Assembly: GCF_044324875.1 (NCBI RefSeq)
Contig: NZ_CP172185.1
Length of the DNA stretch: 64,000 nucleotides
Direction: 5' to 3' (one strand)
DNA from: Escherichia coli
GTDB lineage: Bacteria; Pseudomonadota; Gammaproteobacteria; Enterobacterales; Enterobacteriaceae
The stretch's first letter is position 1, and the number at the start of each line of letters is the position of its first letter. Position numbers and translations under genes: made by a program. The notes beneath the pieces are model-generated. The model saw only the letters and a program-made list of their open reading frames with translations. It had not been told where the DNA came from and searched no databases. Shown one piece after another: positions 1 through 35,790 of the stretch.

Positions 1-666
1 ACCTGAGTTATCTCTGGTCTTTAAGCGCATCGTGTTATCGCGTTGATGTGTTCACCTGACGGATTTTCCAGTCCGTCAGGGCGGAACGTCCGTCTTTTAT
101 CCGGAGGTTCCGATGTTTATTCCACTTCTGTTTCGCGCAGAGATGCGCCTGACACCTTTCTTTCAGCGACTCAGACAACGTCTGTGTTATCCGGTGAGTC
201 GTGTTCATACACAACATCCCTGGTCTTCTCCACAGTTGCGGCACCTTTACTGCACGCCGTGGTTTGTTAACGCCACCGGCAATCTGGCAGTCCGTGCCTG
301 CATTGTTTCCATTGACGGTTCTTTGCGACACTGCTTTGAGTTCCGTGAAGGCTCTCACAGCCGTGAATACCGTTTCTGGTTTGAGGCGCTTCCTTTGTCG
401 GTACTGCGTTTTAACGCTTTTACCGGTCGAATATCCGATCGCCGTACACTCTCTGCTGCCTCCCGTATGGCCGCGCAGCTTACTTCCTTTCGCTATCGCT
501 TCGGTTTGCGCTGAAGCTGTTTGAGGTCGTTATGACCGTCATTTTCTCTACGAGCAGCGTTGTCTGATCGCGCCATTCAGAACGCGATGACAAAGCTGAT
601 TTTTCCTTAACCCGTCCGGGAGCGCTTCCGTTCGGGGAACGGTCTCTCTGTTTCTGGAGATTGTTT

Positions 667-1053
667 ATGGGACTCGATATTTTTTTCCTTGGGCGTGATC
701 GTGTTTGTGTTACCGACGCAGTGGTATCGGTACCGGAAACGCGGGAAGTGGGGTACTTTCGCAAGGTTAACCCACTGATTGCCTGGTTTGAGAAGCATTG
801 TGGACCGCTTGAAAATGCCGTGGAGCGTCCGGTTTCCAGAACGAAACTGGAGGCACTACTGAGCGATCTTGAATGCCTTACGCCGGAGAACTGCCGGGAA
901 TTCTTCCCCACAACAGAAGGATTCTTTTTTGGCTCTCAGGAGTATGACCAGTATTACTGGAAGGATGTTGAGGACGTGAAGTCGTGGGTCAGACGCACGC
1001 TTGATTCGTTTGATTTTGAACGAAAAATACTGTTGCTCTGGGCATGGTGGTAA
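667..1053 (+). CDS. hypothetical protein (island cargo, ~128 aa)
   Basis: ORF track 661..1053 (alternative start at 661, ATG at 667); no recognisable motif; lies upstream of ardA. Confidence 0.3.
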   Translation: MGLDIFFLGRDRVCVTDAVVSVPETREVGYFRKVNPLIAWFEKHCGPLENAVERPVSRTKLEALLSDLECLTPENCREFFPTTEGFFFGSQEYDQYYWKDVEDVKSWVRRTLDSFDFERKILLLWAWW

Positions 1054-1471
1054 CTATTTCTCAGTCCTTATTTTTAACCATGTGATTATTCGCAGAGGCC
1101 CGACAGCTCTGGCCTGCTTTTATTCCGGAGAATGAGATTATGCAAATAAGTGCAGAAACTCGCGCTGTTTTACGTCACTACAGACAGATCATTAACGCCA
1201 GACGGCGTGAAGATGGCATGAAAGCTCTCAGCACGCCGCAAATCGTTGATGAGATCTGTGAGTTTATGCTCAGCCAGCCAGCAGTGTATCTGGGGGGGCA
1301 GTTCATCATGCAGAAGGCCAGAACAAGATAGCTGTCTTTGTTCATGGCTTTTCAACAGACCGTTATGCTTTCGCCACCACATGGTAAGGCGGGTCTGATT
1401 TTACTGTTAACCGTACGGTTCACTCTCATACCGTACGGTGGGAGTGAACCCTTTTCATTAAGGACACTCTC

Positions 1472-1682
1472 ATGAAAACGAAAACTTCTGCACCTGCTGT
1501 ATATGTTGGTACCTGGGCTAAATACAACAATGGCAGCATAGAAGGATGCTGGTTTAATGATTTAACCGTTTTTGAAACTGAAAGCGATTTTTTATCTGCG
1601 GCCCGTAAGTTTCATCAGGATGAAAAAGATCCTGAATTTATGTACCAGGATTATGAAAACTTTCCTTCGGGAATGGCTTCAG
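1472..1682 (+). pseudogene. ardA: antirestriction protein ArdA, N-terminal fragment interrupted by an IS
   Basis: Translation ...PAVYVGTWAKYNNGSIEGCWFNDL...DPEFMYQDYENFPSGMAS matches the ArdA N-terminus as I remember it; reading frame runs 6 codons into the IS end and stops. Confidence 0.6.
1676..1682. repeat. candidate target-site duplication GCTTCAG (left copy)
   Basis: Identical 7-mer immediately flanks both ends of the IS21-family element (second copy 4322..4328). Confidence 0.45.
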
Positions 1683-1884
1683 TGCAAAATGGCATCTGAA
1701 TCGATCGCAGTTTGGCATTCGAATCGATCATGATTTGGCATCCATCTCCGATCACAGTTTGGCATCACAATCGATCACGATTTGGCATGCTTCCGATCAT
1801 TGATTGGCATCCTGCCAGTCACTCCGGGAATTAACTCTTTTCACCACAGTCTCCATTGCCGTGTTTAAACCAGTGGAGACGTCA

Positions 1885-3450
1885 ATGTCCAGAAAGAGAA
1901 AATCCAGGAGCACTATGGAAACCTGTTTTAAGATCCTTCAGCTCAAGTTCGACAAGAAGCTGACTAACCGTTGTATCGGACTGACGTTACACATCAGCGC
2001 CTCAACCGTTTTTGAGGTTCTTGCCCGCTTCAAAGCCTCTTCTCTGTCATGGCCATTACCTGCTGATATATCCCATGACACGCTGGAGAAACTCATTTTT
2101 CCGCCCAAAGACACCTTTGCATCAGAGCTTGTAATGCCTGACATGTTGTACTTCGATACGGAAATGAGAAAACCAGGTGTGACGCGGCAACTGTTGTGGA
2201 TGGAATACAAGGCACAGGCGGGTAACAAAGCGATGGGATACTCGCACTTCTGCCGTTGCTACCGGGAGTGGAAAAAAACGCGACGTCTCTCCATGCGCCA
2301 GGAGCATCGTGCCGGCGAAAAGCTTTTTATCGACTTCTGTGGTCCTACGGTTCCTGTTATTAATCCGGACACCGGTGAGATACGCCGCGTGGCAATCTTC
2401 GTGGCCGTAATGGGGGCGTCCAACTATACCTACGTTGAAGCGTGCGAAGGTCAGGACATGATGTCATGGTTAAATGCCCACAGCCGTTGCCTGACCTTCC
2501 TGGGCGGCGTACCGAAGCTGCTCATCCCCGATAACCTCAGAAGCGCAGTGAAAAAGGCCGATCGATATGAGCCTGTCATCAACGACAGTTATCAGGCACT
2601 GGCTGAGCACTATGGCACGGTTATCATCCCGGCCCGACCACGCAAACCTAAAGATAAACCAAAAGCAGAAAACGGCGTCCTCATCGTTGAACGATGGCTT
2701 CTTGCCCGCATCCGTAATGAAACCTTCCACACGCTCAGGGCGCTGAATGCGCGCCTTAGGGAGTTACTGACAGACATGAATAACCGGCCAATGAAGGGGT
2801 ACGGCAATCAAACCCGTGCAGAACGCTTCCGCATACTGGATGCGCCAGCACTCTCTCCGCTGCCTCTGGCACCTTATGAATACACGGAATACAAAGCTGT
2901 GAAGGTTGGCCCTGACTACCACGTTGAATATGCCCGTCACTGGTACTCCGTTCCACACGAACTGGTCGGTCAGCGTCTGTCACTGAAGGCGGGGCAGTCG
3001 GTGGTACAGCTCTGGCACAAGGGGCAGTGTGTGGCGCAACATCCGCGCAGCACACATGAATATAAACACACAACCAATCCGCTTCACATGCCAGAGCGCC
3101 ACCGGCAGCACGGGACATGGACACCGGAACGCCTGATCGAGCAGGGAAAACGTACGGGCCCGTCCACAGGCCGGGTGGTTGAATCCATGCTGAAGGCAAA
3201 ACCCCATCCGGAACTGGCTTATCGTGCAGTTCTGGGGCTGCTGGCACTTCAGAAAAAATACGGCCCGGAACGGCTGGAAAAGGCCTGTTACGTTGCCCTG
3301 CACTATAACGCCCCTGACAGACGCTTTATCGACAATCTGCTGCGTCACCATCGGGAGAACCTGGAGCTTCCATTATCCCGCCAGGGCGAACAACATCCGG
3401 CATATGCTTCAGAGCATGAAAACCTGCGTGGTCCGGGCTACTACCACTGA
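1885..3450 (+). CDS. istA: IS21-family transposase IstA
   Basis: ORF track 1804..3450; N-terminal HTH-like region then integrase-fold region; start at ATG 1885 or 1915 is uncertain. Confidence 0.8.
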   Translation: MSRKRKSRSTMETCFKILQLKFDKKLTNRCIGLTLHISASTVFEVLARFKASSLSWPLPADISHDTLEKLIFPPKDTFASELVMPDMLYFDTEMRKPGVTRQLLWMEYKAQAGNKAMGYSHFCRCYREWKKTRRLSMRQEHRAGEKLFIDFCGPTVPVINPDTGEIRRVAIFVAVMGASNYTYVEACEGQDMMSWLNAHSRCLTFLGGVPKLLIPDNLRSAVKKADRYEPVINDSYQALAEHYGTVIIPARPRKPKDKPKAENGVLIVERWLLARIRNETFHTLRALNARLRELLTDMNNRPMKGYGNQTRAERFRILDAPALSPLPLAPYEYTEYKAVKVGPDYHVEYARHWYSVPHELVGQRLSLKAGQSVVQLWHKGQCVAQHPRSTHEYKHTTNPLHMPERHRQHGTWTPERLIEQGKRTGPSTGRVVESMLKAKPHPELAYRAVLGLLALQKKYGPERLEKACYVALHYNAPDRRFIDNLLRHHRENLELPLSRQGEQHPAYASEHENLRGPGYYH

Positions 3451-3466
3451 CAGAAGGAACAACAGT

Positions 3467-4222
3467 ATGAGTGATAACCTGTTAAACAAACTGACCCAAC
3501 TGAAACTCCCGGCGATGGCCGGGAGCCTGATACGGCAGCGGGAAACGCCTCAGACCTACGACGAACTGTCGTTCGAGGAAAGGCTGACGCTGCTGGTTGA
3601 TGACGAGCTTCTGAGCAGGGAAAACAGCCGTGTGGCACGGTTGAGAAAAAATGCCGGCCTGAAATACCAGGCAACACCGGAAGGGCTGCGCTATCCGGCC
3701 TCAAGAGGTCTGCGGGCTGAACAGATGAGAGAACTGCTGAACGGCCACTACATAACCCACAGGAAAAACCTGCTGATAACCGGTCCGACAGGATGTGGCA
3801 AGAGCTGGATAGCCAATGCGCTGGGCGAACAGGCATGTCGACAGAAACACAGCGTCCGGTACTGTAGAACCGGGCGATTACTGGAACAACTGGCTCAGGG
3901 ACGTGTTGATGGCAGCTGGCTGAAATATCTGAAACAGTTGCAAAAAATACAGGTTCTAATCCTGGACGATCTGGGGCTGGAACAGTTAAGTAACGCCCAG
4001 TGTAATGACCTTCTGGAGCTCATAGAGGATCGTTACGGACAAAGCAGCACGATAGTGGTAAGCCAGTTCCCGGTAGATAAATGGCATGGTCTGATGGAGA
4101 ACCCAACAACAGCAGATGCCATCCTGGACAGACTGGTACATAACTCACACCGAGTGGTCCTTCAGGGAGAGTCACTGAGGAAAAATCCCCCGGTAGTGGA
4201 AAGCAGCGAAAAAACGCGTTAA
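3467..4222 (+). CDS. istB: IS21-family helper ATPase IstB
   Basis: Walker A GPTGCGKS and Walker B LILDD motifs; ATG 3467 lies 17 nt after the istA stop; ORF track 3224..4222 is an N-terminally over-extended version. Confidence 0.85.
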   Translation: MSDNLLNKLTQLKLPAMAGSLIRQRETPQTYDELSFEERLTLLVDDELLSRENSRVARLRKNAGLKYQATPEGLRYPASRGLRAEQMRELLNGHYITHRKNLLITGPTGCGKSWIANALGEQACRQKHSVRYCRTGRLLEQLAQGRVDGSWLKYLKQLQKIQVLILDDLGLEQLSNAQCNDLLELIEDRYGQSSTIVVSQFPVDKWHGLMENPTTADAILDRLVHNSHRVVLQGESLRKNPPVVESSEKTR

Positions 4223-4300
4223 AAAGCGGTAGAAAAAGTTAAGTTCCCGGTTGATCGAATGGATGCGAATCGCTGATCGGACTTCGATGCCAATCCGTGA

Positions 4301-4627
4301 TCGAATAGAGCGGAATACGCAGCTTCAGAATATGGTTTCAACTGGGCTTATGTTGAAGGTTATCGTCTTGCCCGTGAAGAAGGCTGTGAAGATGCATGGT
4401 ATGCATGGGTTTCTAATACCGGTGATACCTGTTTCGAACAGTTCAGGGAGGCGTGGCTTGGTGGTCCTTATGACAGTGAACTCGAGTTCGCCGCGCAGTA
4501 CGTGGATGAATGCGGTTTTCTGTCAGAGGTACCTGATACTGTTGCACGCTATTTTGATTATGAGGCTTTTGCGCGCGATTTGTTCATGGAACTGGATTTT
4601 GTCGACGGACACGTTTTCCATCGGTAA
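4301..4627 (+). pseudogene. ardA: ArdA C-terminal fragment (no start codon)
   Basis: Frame without ATG translates ...EYGFNWAYVEGYRLAREEGCEDAWYAWVSNTGD...VARYFDYEAFARDLFMELDFVDGHVFHR*, matching the ArdA C-terminal region as I remember it; joins the 1472..1682 fragment across the IS. Confidence 0.55.
4322..4328. repeat. candidate target-site duplication GCTTCAG (right copy)
   Basis: Same 7-mer as 1676..1682. Confidence 0.45.
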
Positions 4628-4730
4628 CTCACAGCCATGAGGGCGCATATAAGCCGTGTACTGGCGGATGTGATTTCAGCATACATTCTGCTGGTTTTTT
4701 TACCGTTGTTGACAATTTTAATCATCGCGG

Positions 4731-5183
4731 ATGAACAACCTGAACTCTGTTGTTCACCGCCCGGAGGCATCGTTCCTTCGGACGGTGTGCTCTTTCATCA
4801 GAAAGAATCAGACAGGGGGTTTTATGTATTCGCGTTTTATTACTGGTTACTGGCATCTTCAGACGCAGTCCGCTTTGCTGGCACATCTCTGTCAGCTTGA
4901 AGGTGAACTGACGATACTTCGCGCCTGGCAACGTCTCGGAATTACCCCGGTGCCGGAGGATGAAGATGAGCCTTCACCACTTTACTCAATTTTGTGGGAT
5001 GTTGGTGAGGCTCTGGGCTGGTTGCTGTATGACCTGGAGATGGAAAATGTTCCTGCACCGGGAACGATTTTCCACGAGGTATTCGACAGGGTTATATCTC
5101 TGGGGTATGAGACTGAGCCCGGTATCTGGGCTGAAAGTATCAGTACCGGAAAGCGCTACGCTGCAATGCCTGACGAATTTTAA
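4731..5183 (+). CDS. hypothetical protein
   Basis: ORF track; start ambiguous (an internal Met MYSRF... is possible); followed by a hairpin. Confidence 0.3.
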   Translation: MNNLNSVVHRPEASFLRTVCSFIRKNQTGGFMYSRFITGYWHLQTQSALLAHLCQLEGELTILRAWQRLGITPVPEDEDEPSPLYSILWDVGEALGWLLYDLEMENVPAPGTIFHEVFDRVISLGYETEPGIWAESISTGKRYAAMPDEF

Positions 5184-5196
5184 TGTTTTCCACATT

Positions 5197-5220
5197 CCCA
5201 CAGGGACTCATCCCTGTGGG
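5197..5220 (+). other. GC-rich palindrome CCCACAGGGA-N4-TCCCTGTGGG, followed by GGGACGGGTCCC and a T-run
   Basis: Perfect 10-bp inverted repeat read from sequence; possible terminator or RNA element between small ORFs. Confidence 0.5.
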
Positions 5221-5250
5221 ACGGGTCCCGGCTTTTTCAGGAGAAATTTC

Positions 5251-5589
5251 ATGAGACCCGATTTGAATACTTTACCCGGAGATTCCGGCTGCAGCGTCTG
5301 GTTCTATGACGGAATGTCTCAACCGCGTCTGCTGGCGGGCAGTATTGCCGGGTTACTGACGGATGTTACGATCACATCGAATTACCGTGGTGACGTCACA
5401 TCTGAAATTCATGACGTGGTGCAGGAGTGGCTTGCGACCGGCAGGGGTAACCTGGCGGATTTAAAGGAAGAACTCTGGTACTACAACCTCTACATAAATC
5501 CGTCGGCAGACGAACTTATGAATGCCAACAGGCGGTATGGCCTCGGACATACCACCAGGCTGAAAGGCTTTATCAATAACGCGGCGTGA
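5251..5589 (+). CDS. hypothetical protein (~112 aa)
   Basis: ATG 5251 preceded by AGGAG; internal start of ORF track 4960..5589. Confidence 0.35.
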   Translation: MRPDLNTLPGDSGCSVWFYDGMSQPRLLAGSIAGLLTDVTITSNYRGDVTSEIHDVVQEWLATGRGNLADLKEELWYYNLYINPSADELMNANRRYGLGHTTRLKGFINNAA

Positions 5590-5600
5590 CACACCGCCAT

Positions 5601-5626
5601 CCCGTGAGGGCTCAGCTCCTCACGGG
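5601..5626 (+). other. palindrome CCCGTGAGG-N8-CCTCACGGG
   Basis: 9-bp inverted repeat upstream of the RBS of the 5665 ORF; the same motif recurs at 6148..6173. Confidence 0.5.
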
Positions 5627-5664
5627 GCTGTTCCCTCGGTGATTTTCATACAGAGAGGAGCAGA

Positions 5665-6102
5665 ATGATGAACGTTAAGTCTGTGACTGAGGTTGACGAC
5701 GCTGTGGTTGCCCGTGTCAGTGAAGTTCTGGAATTCGCATTTCCGGGGCAGAAATTTGAAGTGCTGAAGGTATGCGATTCCGGCGTTTACAACATGATTA
5801 ATGTGTACTGGCTGGACGGCCCGACACAGGCTGAAGTGCGGTTTATCACCCGTGCGTTTGAAGGCAAAAACGGGCTGAGGTTTGTGCACGAATCCCGCGA
5901 ATTCAGTAATGAATTTGTGCAGGAGTGCATTGACCGGCTTCGCCAGAAGTACGGGCATCGCAACGTTCCGCCAGAGGTGACCGTGGAGCGTTACTGGAAA
6001 AACGATCTGTGGAAGATTAAAACAGATCGTTTCCCGGGCACTATTGAGGTTGCCATCAACGAAATGGGGATGGAAACCAGTAAATACCGGAAGGTTGTAT
6101 AA
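5665..6102 (+). CDS. hypothetical protein (145 aa)
   Basis: ORF track; GAGGAG RBS upstream. Confidence 0.4.
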   Translation: MMNVKSVTEVDDAVVARVSEVLEFAFPGQKFEVLKVCDSGVYNMINVYWLDGPTQAEVRFITRAFEGKNGLRFVHESREFSNEFVQECIDRLRQKYGHRNVPPEVTVERYWKNDLWKIKTDRFPGTIEVAINEMGMETSKYRKVV

Positions 6103-6123
6103 CCGGCTGGACTTTTGACGATG

Positions 6124-6147
6124 GCGGAATGTGACAATTCCGCTTTT
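6124..6147 (+). terminator. candidate intrinsic terminator (GCGGAAT-N6-ATTCCGC + TTTTCC)
   Basis: Stem-loop followed by T-run 20 nt after the stop of the 5665..6102 ORF. Confidence 0.4.
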
Positions 6148-6182
6148 CCCGTGAGGGCATTGTTCCTCACGGGACAATGCCC
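6148..6182 (+). other. two overlapping alternative palindromes (CCCGTGAGG/CCTCACGGG and GGGCATTGT/ACAATGCCC)
   Basis: Read from sequence; the two stems are partly mutually exclusive; sits just upstream of the RBS of the 6210 ORF. Confidence 0.45.
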
Positions 6183-6209
6183 TCTTCATTTACCAGAGGA
6201 GCATTGATT

Positions 6210-7187
6210 ATGGCTGAATGGTGCAGAAATCGTTTTGAAATCACCGGTAAGTCAGTCTGTCTTGACGTACTGATTCAGTGGATTGAAGGGAATGATGCCC
6301 CCCGGTACCGTCATGCGATCCAGCAGAGCATACTGCTGTTTCTTGCAGGCTGTGCGGGGATACTGAAACCGGTAAGAACGGTGTCATATCCGCCTTATCC
6401 CGGGCTGGTCAGTCACGGTGCCGGCTCAACAACTGTAGCCAGTCAGGCGTTTGAACAATGGCTGGGATTACTGACCAGGGATGCCTTCCTTGATCACGAG
6501 ACGGTGAAGACAATAGATCGTCTTTATCATCAGACAGGGACAGGCGCTATCCGGTGGAGTAATCTGCCTGATACGGCGAAGGAGATAATCGGTGGTGTGC
6601 TTGCACAACAATATGCTGACTGGTTTGGCGTGGCGGATGTGTATGAACGCCCTGATAACGCCTTTCTCTGGGAGTCGTTGTTAACATTTGCGGAGTATTC
6701 GCAACCCTGTGATATGCTGCAGGTGATGCCAACACGACTGGCCACGGAGCTGAACGGAAGTGGTGGTTTGCTGAAAGGCACCGGAACGACCCGCAGTTTT
6801 TACTGCCGCCAGTTTGGTATGGAGTACCCACTGGGGCAGAATGTCCGGTGGAAACGAACCGGGCTGAGTACGTTGATACTGGAGTTTGATACCATCTGGT
6901 GTCCGCCTTCAGGTGTACTGGTGGGGGAGATTTCGGCAGTGTTTGACTGTGAGGTCCGTCACTGGTACAGCGAGCCGAAGAACGGAATCAGAGGCTATGA
7001 CTGTTATGATGGTGGTGAACATACGGACAGCAATATGGAAGCCGAATGGCCACACTCTGACGATGAGGGGGAGGTCGCGGAGCATGAGCAGCCACAACTC
7101 TGTCTGATCAGGGACACGCAGCCAGGTGAACGCGTCATGGCATTAGCATCAGTCGAGTCCCCGGGGCCAGTAGTAAAAATAGTGTAA
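6210..7187 (+). CDS. hypothetical protein (~325 aa)
   Basis: ORF track 6177..7187; ATG 6210 (MAEWCRNRF...) preceded by GAGGAG; acidic C-terminal tail. Confidence 0.45.
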   Translation: MAEWCRNRFEITGKSVCLDVLIQWIEGNDAPRYRHAIQQSILLFLAGCAGILKPVRTVSYPPYPGLVSHGAGSTTVASQAFEQWLGLLTRDAFLDHETVKTIDRLYHQTGTGAIRWSNLPDTAKEIIGGVLAQQYADWFGVADVYERPDNAFLWESLLTFAEYSQPCDMLQVMPTRLATELNGSGGLLKGTGTTRSFYCRQFGMEYPLGQNVRWKRTGLSTLILEFDTIWCPPSGVLVGEISAVFDCEVRHWYSEPKNGIRGYDCYDGGEHTDSNMEAEWPHSDDEGEVAEHEQPQLCLIRDTQPGERVMALASVESPGPVVKIV

Positions 7188-7196
7188 TGAAACAAT

Positions 7197-7221
7197 GCGC
7201 CACATTTTGTGGCGCTTTTTT
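7197..7221 (+). terminator. intrinsic terminator (GCGCCAC-TTTT-GTGGCGC + TTTTTT)
   Basis: Perfect 7-bp stem followed by T6, 10 nt after the stop of the 6210..7187 ORF. Confidence 0.6.
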
Positions 7222-7268
7222 AATAAATCAGTGATGGCAGAGTTGTTATTGTAAATAACTCTCCGTGT

Positions 7269-10184
7269 TTACTGAGTCAGTTTTTTTATCAGGTCGTGAA
7301 TTTTATCACCTGAAAACTGGGTCATGAAAGTTATCTTTATGGATTTACTGATTTGTTCGAAGAGTTTCTGTGCATGTTTTATTTTATCGCGTTCTTCATG
7401 TCTGAGTTCACGTTTGCCATCAACATTTTTGGTTTCAATAATAAGGTTCAGATAATCACCCTTTGACGTGTTTACAACATAAGCGAAGTCAGGGGAGTAA
7501 GTGTATCCTCCCGCTACAGGAATTTTTATTGAATTTTTGGGGATCTTTGTGAAGACAATGACTGACCTGACCTCACCCTCTGTCATATTGAGTTTTTCAA
7601 GTTCTGAATCATAAAATACTTCTTCAAAAAGATAAGAGTCCAGTGGAGGGCTTGTATTATCCTGTAAAACGCCAAGATCACTTGACAATACATCAGCAAG
7701 ATAACCGCCGTCTGCATTGGTGAATTTCGTGGGATGGACAGTTCCTGATATTACATTATACCCAAGGCTGAATTTACTGAACGAGTTATTAAGCAAATAC
7801 TTGCTGAAACCAGATTTAATTTTTCTGATTGTCTGAATGTTAAGGTATTCAGTTATATTTATGATGTCTTTTATATCACAAAAAACCTTATGCATGGTGT
7901 CATGTTTGACAAAAATAGTCTGTGATAATTTATCAAGGAATTCACGATAGCTCATTGTGTTTATTTTGTGAAAATTATCCTCATCAACACTGAGAATGCT
8001 TTTCGACATTGCCGTATCATTATGGATATAAATTCTTTCAATACGAGTATGAGCACCGGATTTGGTAAATCTGTCTGCTTCTTCCAGCATAAACGCTCTG
8101 AAAAGGGATAAAAACTCACGTTCACTTTTTATTTTATACTCAATCACGACCTTTTGATTGATCAAGTCCCATAGTTCTTTCAGCTCACTGAACTTACCAA
8201 CACGCATTTTAGTGCGTCTTTTTCCATCAGAGGCTTTTTTTATTTTGCCTGGTTTCACTCCTGCAGGAAATGCTGCCGGATATCTGGCTTTTAAGCGGCT
8301 ATAGGCATCTGAATCTTTGAAGTTATCATTATCATCAATGATCTCATCATCAAAAATTTCATTCAAGAGTGTTCTGGAGGAAAGCTCCGGATATTGAGAC
8401 AGGATTTTATCCTTAAGTTCCTGAGTAAACTTACCTGGAACAGTCTCTTTGAAAGAACTATCGTTGATCTCTTTGACAAGAGAATCGACAAAATCTTTTT
8501 CTGTAAAATCAACATAATAGTTGAGGGTAAAATTGCGGTCTTTCACACGACACATGTATTCATTCACCGGAAGACGTAAACCACGCCCTACTTCCTGAAG
8601 TTTAGATGTGGTGCTACCGCTCGAACGGAGCTTACAAATCTGAAAGACATTTGGGTTATCCCATCCCTCACGCAACGTCCATTTAGAGAAAATGAAACGG
8701 CGAGGATTTTCTAAAGACAATAGAAGCTCTTTATCATGAAGGATTTCGTTGATTTCCTGCTCAATTTTATCATCTTTATCACTATTATCTTTTGAAAAAT
8801 AACCACCATGAACAGAAGATATATCCTTAACAGTTTTTTCAAGGTAGTTTCTGTAAAACTCATCTTTTTCTGTTTTTAACAGTTCATTTGCTTCTGCCAA
8901 AACGTATTCTTCGAACTTAGTTTTCAGGCTTCCTGCAATATCATTACCATCACGATAGCCTTCAATGTCATCAATGAAGAAAAGAGTAAGAGGTTTTATG
9001 CGTGGCCTTTGTGTCAGATACTCTTTTTCTAACTTAAAGTGTTCTTTGACAGCTTTACGTATCATGTTATCAGCAAGTGTCTGATCGTAAGAATAGGGGT
9101 TTATCGAACTACCAATTTTTAGCTCAATACCATTACTCAACACTGCTGTATTCTTATTTAAAGCATCAAGAGTTAAATCATGGATCGCACTATGCGTCTT
9201 AGATAGTGATTCACCTTTGGCTAACTTAAAAATTTTTTTATTATTATTTTCGTTCAGTTCAAATGTAGCTTCTTTTCCGTCAGATTTGACCAACTTGAGG
9301 TTGGCATTACCATCACCAACTATATCCTCAATGTATGCATCAATACCTTTAACAAGATCTTCATTGAAGGCATCTACGGCTGTAAGACGATAAACTAAGT
9401 TCTTATATCCTTCACTAAAGGTTGCACCATAGCGGATGATATATTGGGCATTAAATTTTTGAATATGTTCCCATGTCTTTTTACCAGTAGGAAATTTATG
9501 AGGCTCATCAATGATAATGAATGGTTTTATCGCACTAAGTGCAGAAAATGGGGTATCAAACTGATTATTAAGCAAGCCAACATCATAAGTGTCAGTTAAA
9601 GACTTAGAGTTAATCATCCCTGAATTGATCACAAGAATGTGTATATATTTCTTATTGAAATTACTTGCTTCAACAAAATCATGGATAGCTTGAGGCATAT
9701 ACGATTTTGTATTTTTACCCGAACGTTTCTGACTTTCAACAACGTAAGTCTTTAGTTCACGCTCGTAATCATCTCGAAAGTGTTCTTTTATAGCATCGCT
9801 TTTTAAAAAGTTAACGGTTCCGGCTTTGATCGATAGGGTAGGAACAATGATGATAAACTTGTTAATACCAAATGATTTGTTCAGGTCAAAAATTGTTTTG
9901 GTGTAAGTATAAGTTTTACCTGTACCTGTCTCCATAGAAACATCAATTACGTTGCTTTTAGCATCGTAATTATCTTTTGAGTGCTCAATACCATTGAACT
10001 CCTGAACATTTTTTATGTTGTTGTAGTATTGTTGTTCAGATAGATTCAGTTCTGGATTAGCTAACAGGCGAATTGCAACATGATCCGTCTGATGAGGTAT
10101 GGCGGATACAAAGACATTCATTACCGAATCAACGCCAGCCTTTTGATGAGGTAAATTTTTTTCGAATGTGAACCCTTTAGACAT
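7269..10184 (-). CDS. res: Type III restriction endonuclease Res subunit (helicase-nuclease)
   Basis: 971 aa; Walker A METGTGKTYT, DExH-like IIIDEPHKF, C-terminal PD-(x)n-ExK-like SPDFAYVV...IIETK; directly downstream of mod with a 2-nt gap; AT-rich. Confidence 0.85.
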   Translation of the reverse strand: MSKGFTFEKNLPHQKAGVDSVMNVFVSAIPHQTDHVAIRLLANPELNLSEQQYYNNIKNVQEFNGIEHSKDNYDAKSNVIDVSMETGTGKTYTYTKTIFDLNKSFGINKFIIIVPTLSIKAGTVNFLKSDAIKEHFRDDYERELKTYVVESQKRSGKNTKSYMPQAIHDFVEASNFNKKYIHILVINSGMINSKSLTDTYDVGLLNNQFDTPFSALSAIKPFIIIDEPHKFPTGKKTWEHIQKFNAQYIIRYGATFSEGYKNLVYRLTAVDAFNEDLVKGIDAYIEDIVGDGNANLKLVKSDGKEATFELNENNNKKIFKLAKGESLSKTHSAIHDLTLDALNKNTAVLSNGIELKIGSSINPYSYDQTLADNMIRKAVKEHFKLEKEYLTQRPRIKPLTLFFIDDIEGYRDGNDIAGSLKTKFEEYVLAEANELLKTEKDEFYRNYLEKTVKDISSVHGGYFSKDNSDKDDKIEQEINEILHDKELLLSLENPRRFIFSKWTLREGWDNPNVFQICKLRSSGSTTSKLQEVGRGLRLPVNEYMCRVKDRNFTLNYYVDFTEKDFVDSLVKEINDSSFKETVPGKFTQELKDKILSQYPELSSRTLLNEIFDDEIIDDNDNFKDSDAYSRLKARYPAAFPAGVKPGKIKKASDGKRRTKMRVGKFSELKELWDLINQKVVIEYKIKSEREFLSLFRAFMLEEADRFTKSGAHTRIERIYIHNDTAMSKSILSVDEDNFHKINTMSYREFLDKLSQTIFVKHDTMHKVFCDIKDIINITEYLNIQTIRKIKSGFSKYLLNNSFSKFSLGYNVISGTVHPTKFTNADGGYLADVLSSDLGVLQDNTSPPLDSYLFEEVFYDSELEKLNMTEGEVRSVIVFTKIPKNSIKIPVAGGYTYSPDFAYVVNTSKGDYLNLIIETKNVDGKRELRHEERDKIKHAQKLFEQISKSIKITFMTQFSGDKIHDLIKKLTQ

Positions 10185-10186
10185 GA

Positions 10187-12223
10187 TTAGTTTCTTACCA
10201 CCAAATCTAAATCAATAGATTTTTTATTAGCATAACTTTTTAGTGCTTCATTGAGTTCCATCTGTTTCGCACTTTCGAAGTTGCTGCCATAAAATACAAC
10301 TTTGTTAGGGGCAAAGTCTTTGTCTGCATCCAGCTTTTGAAGTAAAGCTTTCAAAGCCTCACTTGTGAAATTAGGCGCAATTAGATATAGCCGACCATCG
10401 CACAAGTGTGCTTTGTAGCCATTAAGGTCAATATCTTCAATTGGTGTTGTTAGCAAGCTGCCATCATACACGCACCATGTCGTCAATAGAGTGTCATACT
10501 GCTCTGGTGTCAATACAGCATCGTCAAAGAAACTAAGATTAGAAAGCGTAAGTTCAGACTCATCTTTCACTCGAAAATTATGAACTGTTTCAAATATTTT
10601 AAATCCCAAATCTCCATTATAATTAGGATTATCTTTTTTCAGCTTTTTTCCTGCCTTAATAATTCTGTCTTTTGTTATATTGAAGATGGATTTATACCCT
10701 TCTTTATAGGCTTGTTTCTTTTTATCTGTTTCTTCATCTAATTGAACACAGATGAAGTTTCTTTTCCTGCCGTCTTCAATATTTAACTCCAGAATACCAT
10801 GAGCTGTAGTTCCAGAGCCAGCAAAAAAGTCAAGATAAATGTCTTTATCTTCGGTTTTTACTGAACCAAATAGTGTTTTTATTAAACTTGTTGGCTTCGG
10901 GTAGGAGAAATATCCTTTCCCACCAAAAAGATTTTCAACCTCAACACCACCATCACTTTTAGTTGAAATAATTGATCTTAGTAAAAACTCTTCAACTTCA
11001 TCTAAAAATTTAACCGAACTGGGTTGGGTGTTTTCTGTACTGGCAAACCAAATTCCACCACAAATAACGCTACCATCATGTAGTTTTTTGATATCTGCAT
11101 ACTTTCCATCTATTCTTTTTGCAATATGATTAAAAGTGCCTTCTTTCCAACGCCAGCCTCTGTCTGGGATTTTGACAGGGTTATTAGTCAAAGGGTGCAA
11201 TACTTCATACGTGGGTCCAAATGAATCTGCATTAGGCCAGCTCATATTAATTTTACCCCATGGCCTATAATCTTCGTTCAAACAGTTGTAAAGAGTAATT
11301 CCACGATCATATCCGTTGGAGCTGTAGAATTTTTTGAGTTGCTGCTCTGCTTTATCTAATGGCACCTTCTCCTTTTTTAACTTTTCAATAAACTGATATA
11401 CATCATCAATACCATCTTTCCGCATTAAAAATTCTTTACTTATTTCGTTATTCTTCGCATAAGCAAGGATGTACTCATGGATATTACCAATACCCTTATC
11501 ATTTTTAGGGATACGTTTATTCCATACAATATTTTCTATGAAATTTGCTTCGCCAAAAATTTCATCACAAATAGTTTTAAGTTGATTTAATTCATTTTCG
11601 TCAATCGAAATAAATATCACACCATCTTCACGTAGAAGCTCACGAGCAATATATAAACGAGGATAAATGAACGTTAACCATGCGCTATGGCTGCTTGAAC
11701 CATTCGTGGTAAATTCAAGTATACGTTTAGCCTCATCAAGATCGATACCTGCCAGATCAGAAAGCTGTTCAGGTGTAAACTTGCGATCATCGTTATAGGC
11801 GAATCCATCCTTACCTGTATTGTATGGTGGATCAATGTAAATCATCTTCACCTTTTCAGAGTAAGCATTAACCATATGCTTCAATACTTCGAGGTTATCC
11901 CCTTTGATTAACAGATTCTGACTGTTTTTGTTCTCTTCACGTTGGTTATGGTCTTTATCTTCGGAGAGTAATGTCTTCGGCGGCAAGTTAGCTAACAGAC
12001 GGGCATAGGATTTACCAAGCCAGTTCAGGCTGTATGATTCTTTGGAGAGTTCAACATCCGATGATTTGACGATTTCAAGCAATTTTTCCTGAATGAACGC
12101 TCCATTTTTATCAAAACACTGTGGAAAGTTAGCCTTTAAAATCGCAAGCTGTTTACTGTTTGTGGTTTCAGTTTCAGAGAAAAGAGTTTCTTTTTTCAGT
12201 TGAAATTGGGGTTGTGTATTCAT
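10187..12223 (-). CDS. mod: Type III DNA methyltransferase Mod (N6-adenine)
   Basis: 678 aa; motif IV IYIDPPYNTG before motif I LDFFAGSGTT (beta-class order typical of Type III Mod); strong GGAGG RBS; ATG 12223 overlaps the stop of the upstream leader ORF. Confidence 0.9.
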   Translation of the reverse strand: MNTQPQFQLKKETLFSETETTNSKQLAILKANFPQCFDKNGAFIQEKLLEIVKSSDVELSKESYSLNWLGKSYARLLANLPPKTLLSEDKDHNQREENKNSQNLLIKGDNLEVLKHMVNAYSEKVKMIYIDPPYNTGKDGFAYNDDRKFTPEQLSDLAGIDLDEAKRILEFTTNGSSSHSAWLTFIYPRLYIARELLREDGVIFISIDENELNQLKTICDEIFGEANFIENIVWNKRIPKNDKGIGNIHEYILAYAKNNEISKEFLMRKDGIDDVYQFIEKLKKEKVPLDKAEQQLKKFYSSNGYDRGITLYNCLNEDYRPWGKINMSWPNADSFGPTYEVLHPLTNNPVKIPDRGWRWKEGTFNHIAKRIDGKYADIKKLHDGSVICGGIWFASTENTQPSSVKFLDEVEEFLLRSIISTKSDGGVEVENLFGGKGYFSYPKPTSLIKTLFGSVKTEDKDIYLDFFAGSGTTAHGILELNIEDGRKRNFICVQLDEETDKKKQAYKEGYKSIFNITKDRIIKAGKKLKKDNPNYNGDLGFKIFETVHNFRVKDESELTLSNLSFFDDAVLTPEQYDTLLTTWCVYDGSLLTTPIEDIDLNGYKAHLCDGRLYLIAPNFTSEALKALLQKLDADKDFAPNKVVFYGSNFESAKQMELNEALKSYANKKSIDLDLVVRN

Positions 12224-12432
12224 AACGCACCTCCAGAATGCACGGAGGTACTTGACGCGGAATTTTTATACAGGCATATTGTTGCGTTGCGTTGCGTTGC
12301 GTTGCGTTGCGTTGCGTTGCGTTTCGTTGCGTTGCGTTGCGTTGCGTTGCGTTGCGTTGCGTTGCGTTGCGTTGCGTTGCGTTGCGTTGCGTTGCGTTGC
12401 GTTGCGTTGCGTTGCGTTGCGTTGCGTTTCAT
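12220..12432 (-). CDS. repeat-containing leader ORF, 70 codons, MK(RNATQ)n..., translationally coupled to mod
   Basis: ATG at 12432 with GAGG 7 nt upstream; the whole pentanucleotide tract is inside the ORF; TGA stop overlaps mod ATG (ATGA). Confidence 0.4.
   Translation of the reverse strand: MKRNATQRNATQRNATQRNATQRNATQRNATQRNATKRNATQRNATQRNATICLYKNSASSTSVHSGGAL
12281..12430. repeat. pentanucleotide tandem repeat (GTTGC)n, 30 units, 28 perfect
   Basis: Read directly: 8 perfect units, GTTTC variant at 12321..12325, 20 perfect units 12326..12425, GTTTC variant 12426..12430. Confidence 0.95.
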
Positions 12433-12709: not shown

Positions 12710-13723
12710 ATGGATGAGAAGCTAAAACATGCGGATTTATCGTCTTTGCCAGAGCAGGTGAGGGTTGCCGCTAGGGAGCTTGTTGACCTGAAGTTTCGTA
12801 TCGATATGGCAGCAAGAGGCGGTACGTCAGGGATACCACTTGACCTGCATGGGAGGATGACAGGAGGAGAATGGGGGCCGCATTGCGGGCTGGAATTTTT
12901 CTGCAGCATCATTCCTTTTTTCCCGCGAGATTTTGAAACCTGTTCAGTAACTGAAATGTTGGTTCCTACCTTACATACCTTCGGCTGCAACTGGCGTTGG
13001 TGGCCCGATCGTTATTGTAGCGACAAAGATGAACACTATATACGGCGTCACATTTTTTCTGATTACGGGCTGAAAAGTACGAGCTATACCTTCATTCCTC
13101 AGTTGGGATTGTTCTGCCCGAGTGAAGGTAAAAATCGTGTTAACTTCTGCCGCCATCACGGTATCGAATATATCCCCGCACAGGTTTATTCCCATGATTA
13201 CCCAGAAGCAAATCGAATCTCTGTGTACGTTCAGGATACTGCCGGAGGGCTGGATGTGTGGGCCGTTCTTGATAATCGCTATGTTCAGAAGGTTACTCAC
13301 TATGCCTTTGCGCTCCCACTTTTGTGCGCTTATGGGGTAGAGTTCCCAGGTAAGTGGCCAGCAGGATGGCCATCGATATCGGACCTCCTGGCTAATCAAC
13401 TGTGTTGCACTGATGACACAACCTTTCATAAACCCGTGATCGATATGCAAGCTGTCAGGGATACGCTGGATCGTGATGAGAACAGCAGAGAGGATGGGGA
13501 GATGTATGTCAAAACCAATGTGGTTGAGCTGCCGCTGGCCGGGCTGGTTCGCTTCATTCTGATCGCAATGTTACTGAGTTTAGGTGCGTTGTTCATCCAC
13601 GAGGTACTGGATGAGGGAAGCCTGTCCAGGATTGCACTGGGAATAAGCACTTTCACGGCTGGCGTGGTTGCTTCGTTTTTTATCCCAGCGTTCCGTATCA
13701 AGAAAAAATATCTTCGCAAATAG
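12710..13723 (+). CDS. hypothetical protein with two C-terminal transmembrane helices (337 aa)
   Basis: ORF track; Cys/Trp-rich soluble part, then hydrophobic helices and a KKK tail; no recognised domain. Confidence 0.35.
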   Translation: MDEKLKHADLSSLPEQVRVAARELVDLKFRIDMAARGGTSGIPLDLHGRMTGGEWGPHCGLEFFCSIIPFFPRDFETCSVTEMLVPTLHTFGCNWRWWPDRYCSDKDEHYIRRHIFSDYGLKSTSYTFIPQLGLFCPSEGKNRVNFCRHHGIEYIPAQVYSHDYPEANRISVYVQDTAGGLDVWAVLDNRYVQKVTHYAFALPLLCAYGVEFPGKWPAGWPSISDLLANQLCCTDDTTFHKPVIDMQAVRDTLDRDENSREDGEMYVKTNVVELPLAGLVRFILIAMLLSLGALFIHEVLDEGSLSRIALGISTFTAGVVASFFIPAFRIKKKYLRK

Positions 13724-31336: not shown

Positions 31337-32845
31337 ATGTCCCTGAATCCCACCGATGAACAGTCAGCCATCATTCACTGGCAGGGGGAAAAACTGGTGG
31401 TGAATGCCTTTGCCGGTACAGGCAAAACCAGCACACTGGTGCAGTTCGCCGCAGCCTGCCCTGAGAGCCGGATGCTGTATCTGGCCTATAACCGCGCGAT
31501 TCGTGATGAGGCGGAGCGCCGGTTTCCCTTTAATGTGGAGTGCAAAACCTCCCATCAGCTGGCGTATTCGCGGTTCGGAAAGCATTTCCGGCATCGTCTG
31601 GTGCCGGGGCTGTCAGTGACGGATGTAGCGAGAAAACTGAACACCCGCTACTGGACGCTTGCCCGTGTTGCCATGACCGCGCTGAATCAGTTCATCTGTT
31701 CGGCGGACGTGGCGCCCGGAATGCAGCATATGCCGCCTCCCGACGAGATGAAGGGCATGTCGCCACAGGATGCGCTGCGTGCCGTGCAGATCCTCTGGCA
31801 TGAAATGAGCAATCCGGATGGCAATTTTCCGGTCACTCACGACACCTATCTGAAGCTCTATCAGCTTTCCTCACCGGATCTGTCACGCAGGTGGGATACG
31901 ATCCTTTTTGATGAGGCCCAGGATGCGAATCCGGTGACGTCCGCACTGGTGCTGGGGCAGCGGTGCAGGGTGGTACTGGTTGGCGACCGTTACCAGCAGA
32001 TTTATCGTTTTCGTGGTGCCAGCAATGCACTGTCGCATCCGGCACTGAACGGGGCGGACCGTCTCTGGCTGACGCAAAGTTTTCGTTTTGGTCCTGCCGT
32101 GGCCGGGGTGGCCAGCCAGTTACTGAAGCGTGCCGGCGAGAGCCGTGAGGTGACCGGCAGGGGCGGGGATGATGAAGTGCTGACGGCAGGTGAAATGCGT
32201 GCGCGCGTGAAGGCAGGGAAGATGACCGGTCACAGGGCGATACTGAGCCGGACGGTGGCCGGTGTGATTGGCACCGCACTGATGGCGGCAATGCGTGGCA
32301 GGAAGGTTTACTGGGTGGGGGGCATTGAAGGCTACAGAACGGAGGCACTGGAAGATCTTTACTGGTTTCAGATGGATATGCCGGAGCGGATGCACAGTGA
32401 CAGACTGCGGAAGGACTACCGGGGTTTTGACGAGTACCGTCATATTGCGAAGGTGACGAAGGATGTGGAAATGAATCAGTCCATTCGTCTGCTGGAGCTG
32501 TGCTTTCCGCTGCCGAAGAAACTCGAACTTCTCAGAAAGCACACCGTCACGAATGAACAGGAGGCGGATATCACGGTCTCAACGGCACACCGCAGTAAGG
32601 GACTGGAGTGGTCACTGGTGGTACTCGATGATGATTTTCAGGATATCACCGACCCGCTGATAAGCGAGCAGGAGCGGCGGGATGAAACCAATCTGCTCTA
32701 TGTGGCGGTCACCCGGGCGCGCAGAACGCTGGTTCTCAATGAACTCATGCAGCAGCTGACGGAAGCTGCCGGCGATGGTGGTGCACCCGGAAACGCGCCG
32801 GTGCAGGGGAAGGAAGACGATGGTGTGGAGGGAGAGGATGTTTAA
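31337..32845 (+). CDS. UvrD/PcrA-like superfamily 1 helicase (502 aa)
   Basis: Walker A AFAGTGKTS, Walker B/DEAQD, motif VI-like VAVTRARR; RBS GGAGG upstream. Confidence 0.75.
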   Translation: MSLNPTDEQSAIIHWQGEKLVVNAFAGTGKTSTLVQFAAACPESRMLYLAYNRAIRDEAERRFPFNVECKTSHQLAYSRFGKHFRHRLVPGLSVTDVARKLNTRYWTLARVAMTALNQFICSADVAPGMQHMPPPDEMKGMSPQDALRAVQILWHEMSNPDGNFPVTHDTYLKLYQLSSPDLSRRWDTILFDEAQDANPVTSALVLGQRCRVVLVGDRYQQIYRFRGASNALSHPALNGADRLWLTQSFRFGPAVAGVASQLLKRAGESREVTGRGGDDEVLTAGEMRARVKAGKMTGHRAILSRTVAGVIGTALMAAMRGRKVYWVGGIEGYRTEALEDLYWFQMDMPERMHSDRLRKDYRGFDEYRHIAKVTKDVEMNQSIRLLELCFPLPKKLELLRKHTVTNEQEADITVSTAHRSKGLEWSLVVLDDDFQDITDPLISEQERRDETNLLYVAVTRARRTLVLNELMQQLTEAAGDGGAPGNAPVQGKEDDGVEGEDV

Positions 32846-35714: not shown

Positions 35715-35790
35715 TGGTGCCCGGAGGCGGAATCGAACCACCGACACGGGGATTTTCAATCCCCTGCTCTACCGACTGAGCTATCCGGGC
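35715..35790 (-). tRNA. pheV: tRNA-Phe (GAA), pheV-type, with variant T-stem
   Basis: 76-nt cloverleaf GCCCGGATAGCTCAGTCGGTAGAGCAGGGGATTGAAAATCCCCGTGTCGGTGGTTCGATTCCGCCTCCGGGCACCA; anticodon GAA; located beside yqgA. Confidence 0.9.

Follow-up and report, generated by a model that had tools for sequence, protein, structure and literature searches.

A stretch of 64,000 nucleotides of Escherichia coli DNA (contig NZ_CP172185.1; hereafter the window) begins with a row of small genes around ardA, several of which are preceded by GC-rich palindromes. The question raised by this locus is what the palindromes do, and whether the genes form a module directed against host defences, as had been proposed in a first-pass annotation made from the sequence. 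The region was shown to be the anti-restriction/establishment gene array of an integrative and conjugative element (ICE) of the SPI-7/YAPI type, with MPF_G transfer genes and a MOBH TraI, inserted at tRNA-Phe. By sequence analysis, folding and comparison with relatives, each palindrome was shown to form helix A in an mRNA leader of three helices, and in such arrays a leader of this kind stands before nearly every gene.

The element was identified by comparison with a RefSeq-annotated E. coli chromosomal island (L001), which is 99.9% identical to the window locus outside one insertion. The RefSeq order of this locus is TIGR03756/7 ICE proteins, TraG-N, the array, a type III restriction-modification (R-M) system, a type IVb pilus operon, a uvrD-like gene, traI, int and tRNA-Phe. 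The annotation of this collinear relative thus holds the TIGR0375x transfer proteins, TraI (MOBH) and tyrosine integrase beside a tRNA that mark ICEs of the SPI-7/YAPI/ICEclc type. An integrase-domain gene and a zinc-finger gene lie between the MPF_G-type transfer genes and the array, as seen when the remainder of the window is read together with the collinear relative.

Three-helix leaders in the array

The array genes are all on the + strand, in the order ORF113, orfA, orfB, ardA, orfC, orfD, orfE (LPD29) and orfF (DUF1281/Api92), and are followed by a terminator (Table 1). The six open reading frames (ORFs) of the first-pass annotation, with starts at 661, 1140, 4731, 5251, 5665 and 6210, are indeed all on this strand and correspond one-to-one with RefSeq coding sequences (CDSs) of the 99.9%-identical E. 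coli ICE. Their coordinates were retained for 1140-1331, 5251-5589, 5665-6102 and 6210-7187, while the starts at 661 and 4731 were moved to 667 and 4824. The array does not start at 661, as had been supposed, but further left, with an ORF at 113-514 that has a leader of its own.

The GC-rich palindromes reported before the last three ORFs were located at 5197-5220 (arms CCCACAGGGA/TCCCTGTGGG), 5601-5626 and 6148-6173, each followed by an AGGAG-type ribosome-binding site. The latter two share the form CCCGTGAGG-N8-CCTCACGGG, which has two matches in 64 kb against 0.03 expected by chance. The palindromes are more than punctuation between genes: each forms one arm of a regulatory leader that is conserved. 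In this leader a segment b' can pair either with an upstream segment b, forming a GC-rich helix B of 12-14 bp followed by a U-run, or with the Shine-Dalgarno (SD) and start region, forming helix C. Segment b lies in the 3' part and loop of helix A; helices A and B are mutually exclusive, and likewise B and C. As both pair with b', segment b is bound to resemble the ribosome-binding region.

The leader regions fold 3-5 standard deviations better than shuffled sequences. Folding of the intergenic regions gave two adjacent hairpins, A and then C, the latter formed by b' with the SD and spacer. The same layout with differing sequences was found before ORF113 (55-112), orfA (611-666), ardA (1410-1471), orfE (5600-5664) and orfF (6147-6209). 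For ORF113 the minimum-free-energy fold is A + C, at -35.1 kcal/mol. In the ardA leader helix C masks AAGGA through to the base before AUG; in an orthologous ardA leader (L031:997) helix A is retained and the changes in b, b' and the start region are concerted. Helix B of the orfF leader (6153-6184) has the form GAGGGCAUUGUUCC-UCAC-GGGACAAUGCCCUC, with 14 bp and the loop UCAC, and an additional hairpin, H0, precedes helix A. The orfD leader contains a small hairpin at 5217-5230 (5222-5230 in the other fold) followed by GCUUUUU, and the orfC leader, which lacks clear SD masking, is nearly identical in E. coli strain G8. The clean terminator reported after the last ORF was recovered as a hairpin followed by T6 on the + strand; the tail on the - strand is less T-rich.

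A 28-codon ORF (6121-6207) spans the orfF leader and ends 2 nt before its AUG. It was considered as a leader peptide and rejected, as nothing equivalent was found in homologues; it has no obvious SD and is probably due to chance. An Rfam scan of window positions 1-7300 returned nothing even at E <= 1.

Conservation of the leaders

A scan of one genome per species yielded 33 loci with DUF1281 relatives, from Leclercia, Pantoea, Erwinia, Edwardsiella, Rosenbergiella, Mixta and Xenorhabdus. Among plasmid-borne and chromosomal DUF1281 genes, the alignment to the window begins exactly at the leader. The DUF1281 leaders in all loci keep the architecture, and the sequences of the helices and of the SD region change together. 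Helix A occurs as CCCGUGAGG/CCUCACGGG, as CCCCUGAGG/CCUCAGGG and, in Xenorhabdus, as CCCAUCGGGG/CCCUGAUGGG; helix B occurs as GGGCAUUGU/ACAAUGCCC, GGACACCGC/GCUGUGUCC or GGGAACYG/CGGUUCCUC. The DUF1281 proteins of the genera that keep this design are only 45-62% identical.

RNAalifold, applied to the 33 DUF1281 leaders, independently returned helix B. In this alignment 96.4% of cells pair, compared with 84.6% in shuffles (reached by 0 of 500), and six of the ten pairs change on both sides, while slid controls pair at 50-60%. An independent orthologous set, 17 leaders of a methylase-like gene, returned the core of A together with C. Seven of the 12 pairs of helix C are compensatory in this set, with both sides changed, and A+C as a whole is 93.8% paired against 87.4% in shuffles (0/500). 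Beyond the GGAG core, b' and the start region pair over a further 8-13 bp, and this pairing covaries. Many pairs of helix B are G-U, which would be A-C mismatches on the opposite strand, and the structure therefore belongs to the mRNA-sense strand.

A generic scan was also carried out, requiring helix B, a T-run, and a b' complementary to a segment beside the start codon, with overlap of helix A. In the 33 loci (412 kb) the full A+B+C combination was matched 63 times on the + strand and once on the - strand, compared with about 2 matches per pass in dinucleotide shuffles. An overlap of helix A with the apex and 5' strand of B occurs in the 63 leaders, against 1-2 expected. In the E. coli ICE variant L038 every intergenic space of at least 80 nt within the array folds as A + C. 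Two E. coli variants share 91-94% identity in the leaders, compared with 85.6% for the block overall, and H0 shows a compensatory change from A:T to G:C. The CCCGTGAGG palindrome was found solely at leaders and, in other genera, solely before DUF1281; a common operator or a mobile REP-like repeat was rejected on this ground. When the relatives were scanned with Rfam, STAXI, EFASI, RNA-OUT and tRNA were matched, and the leaders matched no model.

Folding energies and proposed mechanism

In nascent RNA up to the end of the U-run, helix B was part of the minimum-free-energy fold in 49 of the 63 leaders, usually at only a few kcal/mol better than A. In the full-length leader helix C was in the fold, as A + C, in 53 of 63. 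Consensus scans of the window and relatives found no promoter-like site between B and the SD, and the downstream gene must therefore be transcribed through B. In most homologues helix B is followed by a run of 5-8 T residues and so has the form of a terminator, with weaker T-runs in the copies of the window; helix A provides the mutually exclusive upstream hairpin of an attenuator.

These features suggest the following course of events. When RNA polymerase is at the U-run, B would be slightly favoured and would stop transcription. If helix A holds, transcription would continue, b' would close on the SD and the message would stay untranslated. The genes of a resident element would be held off at two levels, as by a double lock, and translation would occur only when B forms without terminating or when a factor holds b'. 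The leading guess for the trigger is a polymerase made terminator-resistant at the start of a transcript containing the RNA element STAXI (see below). Coupling to an upstream ribosome was considered and rejected. The distance from the stop codon of the upstream gene to helix A is 11-78 nt, and H0 often intervenes; a terminating ribosome would not open A. Taken jointly, the identity of the array as part of an ICE, the three-helix leader, silencing at two levels and a role of the proteins in establishment would form the best explanation of the locus, and we put its chance of being correct slightly above even.

Several points weigh against this explanation. The orfB and orfC leaders fit the three-helix design poorly, orfD uses another topology, and the window leaders of ardA, orfE and orfF have eroded T-runs behind B. 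Helix A covaries little within orthologous sets. In Xenorhabdus taken by itself, A and C are kept but do not covary (207 of 500 shuffles do as well) and several A pairs are broken, so that the constraint on A could lie at the DNA level. When C was tested without conditioning on C, the result was only moderately positive (40% for cognate and 17% for non-cognate pairs). The proposed logic has two OFF states and needs a trigger; Pfam and NCBIfam scans of the array proteins found no antiterminator protein domain, and trans-pairing of STAXI or EFASI with a or b' was rejected, as the duplex energies were no better than those of shuffles (z -1.6 to +1.4). With a disrupted ardA and a type III R-M system in place of the methylase-like gene, the array may also be decaying here.

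STAXI, EFASI and the upstream promoter

A conserved structured element of roughly 200 nt, which contains STAXI (RF01728), lies upstream of the arrays. Rfam found no STAXI match inside the window, and in relatives the matches score 83-110 bits. In all relatives checked, STAXI and EFASI (RF02957) flank the integrase-domain gene upstream of the array; L001 has two STAXI copies (Table 1). Position 1 of the window corresponds to L001 position 11602, and the second STAXI copy ends about 90 nt to its left. A sigma-70-like promoter is present immediately 5' of STAXI in E. coli and Edwardsiella; in the Xenorhabdus copies a TTGACC box was seen by eye, which the consensus scan did not report. It was thus shown from relatives that the array follows a sigma-70-like promoter and STAXI just left of window position 1. 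As this promoter is followed by STAXI and then by repeated leader-gene units, the array looks like one operon.

The name STAXI refers to the genes with which the motif is associated, those for Ssbp, topoisomerase, antirestriction and XerDC-integrase (Weinberg et al. 2010, PMC2864571). STAXI and EFASI share the neighbourhood of the leaders, STAXI lying in relatives between the promoter-like site and the first leader. STAXI, however, is a tandem pseudoknot that occurs once or twice per element, while the leaders are of a shorter design and are repeated before each gene. By analogy with the processive antitermination of put and EAR, STAXI and the gene-by-gene leaders might form one system, in which STAXI would confer on the polymerase resistance to every B. 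A B that does not terminate would free the SD and turn translation on, while other polymerases would be terminated or would yield a masked message. We think it unlikely that this proposal holds. If it does, STAXI gains a function 15 years after its description, and the timing of the anti-defence genes of the ICE is explained.

Alternative explanations

The hairpins could be ordinary intrinsic terminators and mRNA-stabilising stem-loops between separately transcribed genes, with the alternative pairings as a side effect of GC-rich stems beside GGAG-type sites. Helix B with its T-run does match the terminator consensus, terminator-like sites number 25 in the window region against 7.3 expected (19 against 5.6 in L001), and H0 hairpins directly follow stop codons. 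However, B ends 15-30 nt before the start codon, so that the genes, which have no promoter-like site in this interval, are transcribed through it. The covariation in the pairs that b' forms with the start region outside the GGAG core and the occurrence of the full A+B+C combination at about 30 times the frequency in shuffles also argue against this explanation, which is regarded as improbable. It is somewhat less probable that the palindromes are DNA operators for an element-encoded repressor, with transient de-repression after transfer (zygotic induction). Palindromes do recur in front of every establishment gene, two leaders with differing loops share the arms CCCGTGAGG/CCTCACGGG, which are also kept across genera, and helix A shows conservation rather than covariation. 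A precedent exists in the Reg576 operators of p576, which lie upstream of ardC and other genes (PMC6294495). The arms nevertheless differ among the leaders of one element (CCTGACGGA, ACCGTACGGT, CCCACAGGGA and CCCGTGAGG), and there is therefore no common operator. No promoter overlaps the palindromes, and the G-U pairs and strand-specific covariation of B and C are unexplained by DNA binding.

The structures might act in single-stranded DNA during or after transfer, as priming signals, as Frpo/ssi-like promoters such as those of F and ColIb-P9, or in strand protection. The setting is a conjugative element beside anti-restriction genes, leading regions use single-strand promoters (PMC11541004), and a role in single-stranded DNA was raised for the neighbouring STAXI by Weinberg et al. 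(PMC2864571). The hairpins, however, are 26-32 nt long and have no -35/-10 elements. Their G-U pairs fit only the mRNA-sense strand, while a transferred template strand, as for known leading-region genes, would carry A-C mismatches, and the complementarity to SD and start codon points to translation. We hold such a role to be very improbable. The least probable alternative, to which hardly any weight is given, is that the cluster is a decaying, functionless remnant whose palindromes are conserved through close kinship of the ICE variants. The insertion sequence (IS) in ardA, the replacement of the array end by the type III R-M pair with IS fragments nearby and the eroded T-runs would agree with decay. 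The design is kept, however, with compensatory changes, across genera with strongly diverged DUF1281 proteins, and the array CDSs other than ardA are uninterrupted ORFs.

Synteny with anti-restriction genes

The DUF1281 gene directly follows an ArdC-like gene in a Citrobacter element, in Salmonella SGI-4 (L003) and in E. coli strain G8 (L041); loci L002 and L009 are among those with ArdC directly before DUF1281. In the relatives from E. coli, Salmonella SGI-4, Edwardsiella, Erwinia, Pantoea and Xenorhabdus, DUF1281 comes without exception after a gene for ArdA, ArdB/KlcA or ArdC. In Xenorhabdus (L013) two ArdB/KlcA genes lie upstream of DUF1281 and a CbtA-like toxin gene (7602-7910) immediately before it, while in E. 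coli variant L038 an ArdB/KlcA gene immediately precedes DUF1281. Downstream of DUF1281 the relatives carry a 228-aa N6-methylase-like ORF, cargo, and then uvrD-traI-int. The cargo of L038 (10172-12378) is a CBASS system with a SMODS/DncV-like gene and a ThiF-domain gene, that is, defence cargo adjoining a presumed anti-defence array. Homologues of orfA precede ArdC in several related ICE loci, and the orfC-orfD-LPD29-DUF1281 block of strain G8 comes after ArdC rather than ArdA. The known anti-defence genes that cluster with methylase or toxin genes are thus ArdA here and ArdC and ArdB/KlcA, with the N6-methylase-like and CbtA-like toxin genes, in relatives.

Because ArdA, ArdB/KlcA and ArdC alternate in syntenic arrays, the array is therefore best described as a putative mosaic establishment module with interchangeable anti-restriction genes. 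The module is supported by synteny only, and, one weak orfC match apart, the synteny of orfB, orfC, orfD and LPD29 is limited to E. coli ICE variants. In tblastn searches of the 33 loci from other genera, orfB, orfD and LPD29 had no match, and orfC had one weak match (L007, 25% identity over 83 aa). The first-pass proposal of an anti-defence module of a conjugative element stands to the extent that an accessory module surrounds anti-restriction genes by synteny; no ORF could be given a mechanism. The synteny whose loss had been named as an argument against a module is kept. The gene cluster itself is already known ICE content.

Proteins of the array

The ardA gene, around which the cluster was described, is split by an IS21-family element. 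Its reading frame is interrupted at 1682/4322, and ardA is a pseudogene here. The IS is flanked by a 7-bp target duplication, GCTTCAG, at 1676-1682 and 4315-4321. None of 5,426 complete E. coli genomes was found to carry this insertion in ardA, and 99.9%-identical copies of the IS21-family element are common on plasmids of E. coli and E. fergusonii. The rejoined ArdA (169 aa, from the intact relative L001) matches Pfam PF07275 over positions 1-147 of 155 (E 1.8e-24) and is highly acidic, with a pI of 4.2 and a net charge of -21.

For four of the ORFs that had been left unassigned (orfA, orfB, orfC and orfD) no Pfam, NCBIfam, PADLOC or PDB-sequence match was found, while orfE could be assigned, by a partial match, to LPD29 and orfF to DUF1281 plus DUF1281_C. 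ORF113 had no Pfam or NCBIfam match; a WF.N..G...(V/F)RA motif, noticed by eye, is common to its relatives in Edwardsiella and Mixta. The orfA product is a member of phrog_7971, an uncharacterised family that is large, with 891 sequence clusters. Its AlphaFold model had a pLDDT of 91, and a PDB fold search gave a weak match to YfbM (1RYL, E 0.07). A match of orfA to the DNA mimic DMP12 was non-significant (E 1.1), and no reading of orfA was based on these fold matches. The AFDB neighbours of orfA are uncharacterised, except for two labelled DUF4253 and one with a solute-binding-protein label. The orfC family is narrow, with 17 homologous clusters, and a 61%-identical homologue lies within an ArdB-containing array. 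The frame from 4731 runs through the structured leader of orfC.

The AlphaFold model of orfD had a pLDDT of 83 and no PDB match in the fold search. Structure prediction, which had been recommended for assigning the ORFs, thus gave confident models of orfA and orfD without an informative solved relative. Giant proteins of 1000-2200 aa (P0163, P0166, P0177, P0180 and similar) also contain 5-8 repeated stretches to which the orfD sequence has matches. One of these was scanned and contained only a T9SS C-terminal sorting domain; the matches may be an artefact of repeat composition or reflect a shared small domain. They were discarded as a functional clue, having led only to this sorting domain, and are probably uninformative.

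The orfE product matches the LPD29 profile PF18847 in part (model positions 7-57 of 93, E 7.9e-6), and the RefSeq name of an identical protein is LPD29 domain-containing. LPD29 is one of forty polyvalent-protein-associated domains and its function was not given (Iyer et al. 2017, PMC5512222); solo copies were suggested to help early invasion (PMC5512222). The orfF product contains PF06924 (E 1e-64) followed by PF18406 (E 5.5e-13), and it aligns over residues 3-276 with PDB 2IJR, Api92 of the Yersinia pseudotuberculosis island YAPI (E 2e-106). No description of DUF1281 function was found in the literature searched. Searches of PADLOC, NCBIfam and PDB sequences assigned an anti-defence mechanism to no array ORF. 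From the neighbourhood we infer that the array proteins may counter restriction or other defences shortly after the element has entered a new host.

Other features of the element

The array is oriented towards uvrD-traI-int. We infer only that its strand would suit reading from the transferred strand if transfer starts near traI and runs leftwards. ICEclc has two oriTs, and TraI acts on both; the oriT/nic position for the ICE family studied here was not recovered from the literature searched. The block from the 3' part of ardA to DUF1281 (at least 80% coverage) is present in 43 of 5,426 complete E. coli genomes, many of them from poultry. The type III R-M pair sits where relatives carry the N6-methylase-like gene and then cargo such as CBASS, and IS fragments lie near the window array. 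The GTTGC repeat and that of the near-identical relative differ by about 68 bp in length; this difference points to slippage and, possibly, to phase variation.

Table 1. Positions of array genes, leaders and neighbouring features (window coordinates, unless L001 is stated)
Feature	Position	Strand	Remarks
Sigma-70-like promoter-like site	L001, 11298-11327		abuts 5' side of STAXI
STAXI copies	L001, 8546-8718 and 11341-11512		flank integrase-domain gene
EFASI (RF02957)	L001, 9243-9365		upstream of integrase-domain gene
ORF113 leader	55-112	+	helix A 55-80 (CCTGACGGA/TCCGTCAGG); b' 83-94; T-run 95-100; helix C 82-112 masks SD GGAGG
ORF113	113-514	+	133 aa; first array gene in window, left of first-pass coordinates; RefSeq hypothetical protein
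orfA leader	611-666	+	helix A 611-636; helix C 637-666, GAACGGUCUCU with GGAGAUUGUUU up to AUG
orfA	667-1053	+	128 aa, acidic; ATG 667 preferred over 661
orfB leader	1092-1137	+	terminator-like hairpin 1092-1117, UUUUAUU, then small hairpin reaching SD
orfB	1140-1331	+	63 aa, basic, pI 10; no family assignment
ardA leader	1410-1471	+	helix A 1410-1439 (ACCGUACGGU twice); helix B 1417-1450, then CUUUUCA; helix C 1440-1471
ardA, 5' fragment	1472-1682	+	codons 1 to about 70
IS21-family element, ISSso4-like	1683-4314	+	2632 bp; istA 1885-3450, istB 3467-4222; multiple terminal repeats
ardA, 3' fragment	4322-4627	+	
orfC leader	4761-4823	+	overlapping hairpins 4761-4793, CCGGAGG/CCUUCGG and GCAUCGUUC/GGACGGUGU, then CUUUCAU
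orfC	4824-5183	+	119 aa, pI 4.3, net charge -13; true start ATG 4824, not 4731
orfD leader	5186-5250	+	variant topology; UUUUCC 5186-5191 pairs with SD GGAGAA 5240-5245, enclosing palindrome A 5196-5221
orfD	5251-5589	+	112 aa; phrog_10958; 51 distant relatives
orfE leader	5600-5664	+	helix A 5600-5627; helix B 5606-5637; helix C 5628-5663 masks GAGAGGAG
orfE	5665-6102	+	putative LPD29-domain protein, 145 aa; partial PF18847 match and RefSeq annotation
orfF leader	6123-6209	+	H0 6123-6144, then UUUU; helix A 6147-6174; helix B 6153-6184; helix C 6175-6206 masks AGAGGAG
orfF	6210-7187	+	DUF1281 + DUF1281_C protein, 325 aa; Api92 homologue
Hairpin terminator	7197-7215		between convergent orfF (+) and type III res (-); GCGCCACA-TTT-TGTGGCGC, then T6; z = -5
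Type III R-M pair	7269-12223	-	res 7269-10184, mod 10187-12223; convergent with array
GTTGC pentanucleotide repeat	12281-12428		29.6 copies; between type III mod and ORF 12710-13723
Rest of ICE	15641-35790		TraF/TraE, shufflon-type recombinase, PilV-containing type IVb pilus operon (- strand), then uvrD-like, traI, int, tRNA-Phe
uvrD-like	31337-32845		
traI (MOBH)	32775-34367		ORF matched to annotated relative
int	34398-35510		ORF matched to annotated relative
tRNA-Phe	35718-35790		marks ICE end; core chromosome (yqgA, speC ...) beyond

Comparison with known systems

Anti-restriction and establishment genes decide the survival of a conjugative element on entering a new host. Control of establishment genes is understood for few plasmids, by single-strand promoters in F and ColIb and by a repressor in p576. 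The ICE family studied here, which includes Salmonella SGI-4 and relatives of Yersinia YAPI, appears to have a different solution, a compact RNA device before almost every gene that would couple a terminator to masking of the ribosome-binding site. If confirmed, the leaders would constitute a new cis-regulatory RNA family, and the function of STAXI would become directly testable. The orfA family (about 900 clusters), the orfC and orfD families, LPD29 and DUF1281 would then make up a set of co-regulated proteins worth screening for anti-defence roles.

The anti-defence islands that Samuel et al. (2024, PMC11541004) described from the leading regions of plasmids, within the first ~30 ORFs to enter the recipient from oriT, likewise consist of co-directional small genes, mostly uncharacterised, around anti-restriction and methylase-like genes, and anti-defence enrichment was found in that study for MOBH elements among others. 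Frpo islands, however, use single-strand promoters, while the element repeated here is a short mRNA leader with no promoter. No long Frpo-like hairpin with -35/-10 boxes was noticed in window positions 1-7300, which were inspected without a reference Frpo sequence for comparison. The Bacillus p576 regulon (PMC6294495) likewise has a recurrent cis element before each establishment or anti-restriction gene, which is thought to give transient expression after transfer. In p576 this element is a DNA heptamer operator in promoters, bound by a ribbon-helix-helix repressor, whereas the elements found here are RNA helices with no promoters at them. Api92 (PDB 2IJR, from YAPI) has a solved structure without an assigned function, and the same gene with the same leader is present in Salmonella SGI-4. 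The methylase-like partner gene downstream is missing in the window.

In trp-type attenuation and in the RAT sites of BglG/SacY a 5' hairpin overlaps and excludes the terminator hairpin. In dual-acting riboswitch expression platforms the 3' strand of the terminator doubles as an anti-SD sequence. The leaders share with these attenuators and riboswitch platforms both the exclusion of B by A and the logic of the anti-SD strand. Unlike them, the leaders have no conserved leader peptide and no aptamer-sized domain, and their antiterminated state is translationally masked. A CAT-domain antiterminator of the BglG/SacY type was not found in the Pfam and NCBIfam scans of the array proteins. In the IS10 transposase mRNA and in hok mRNA an upstream segment pairs with the ribosome-binding site and blocks the translation of read-through transcripts. 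IS10 has its own promoter inside the structure, which yields a shorter, translatable mRNA, while no internal promoter was seen in the leaders described here. Absent from Rfam and from the literature searched, the leader family is new and would be a variant of terminator and anti-SD control.

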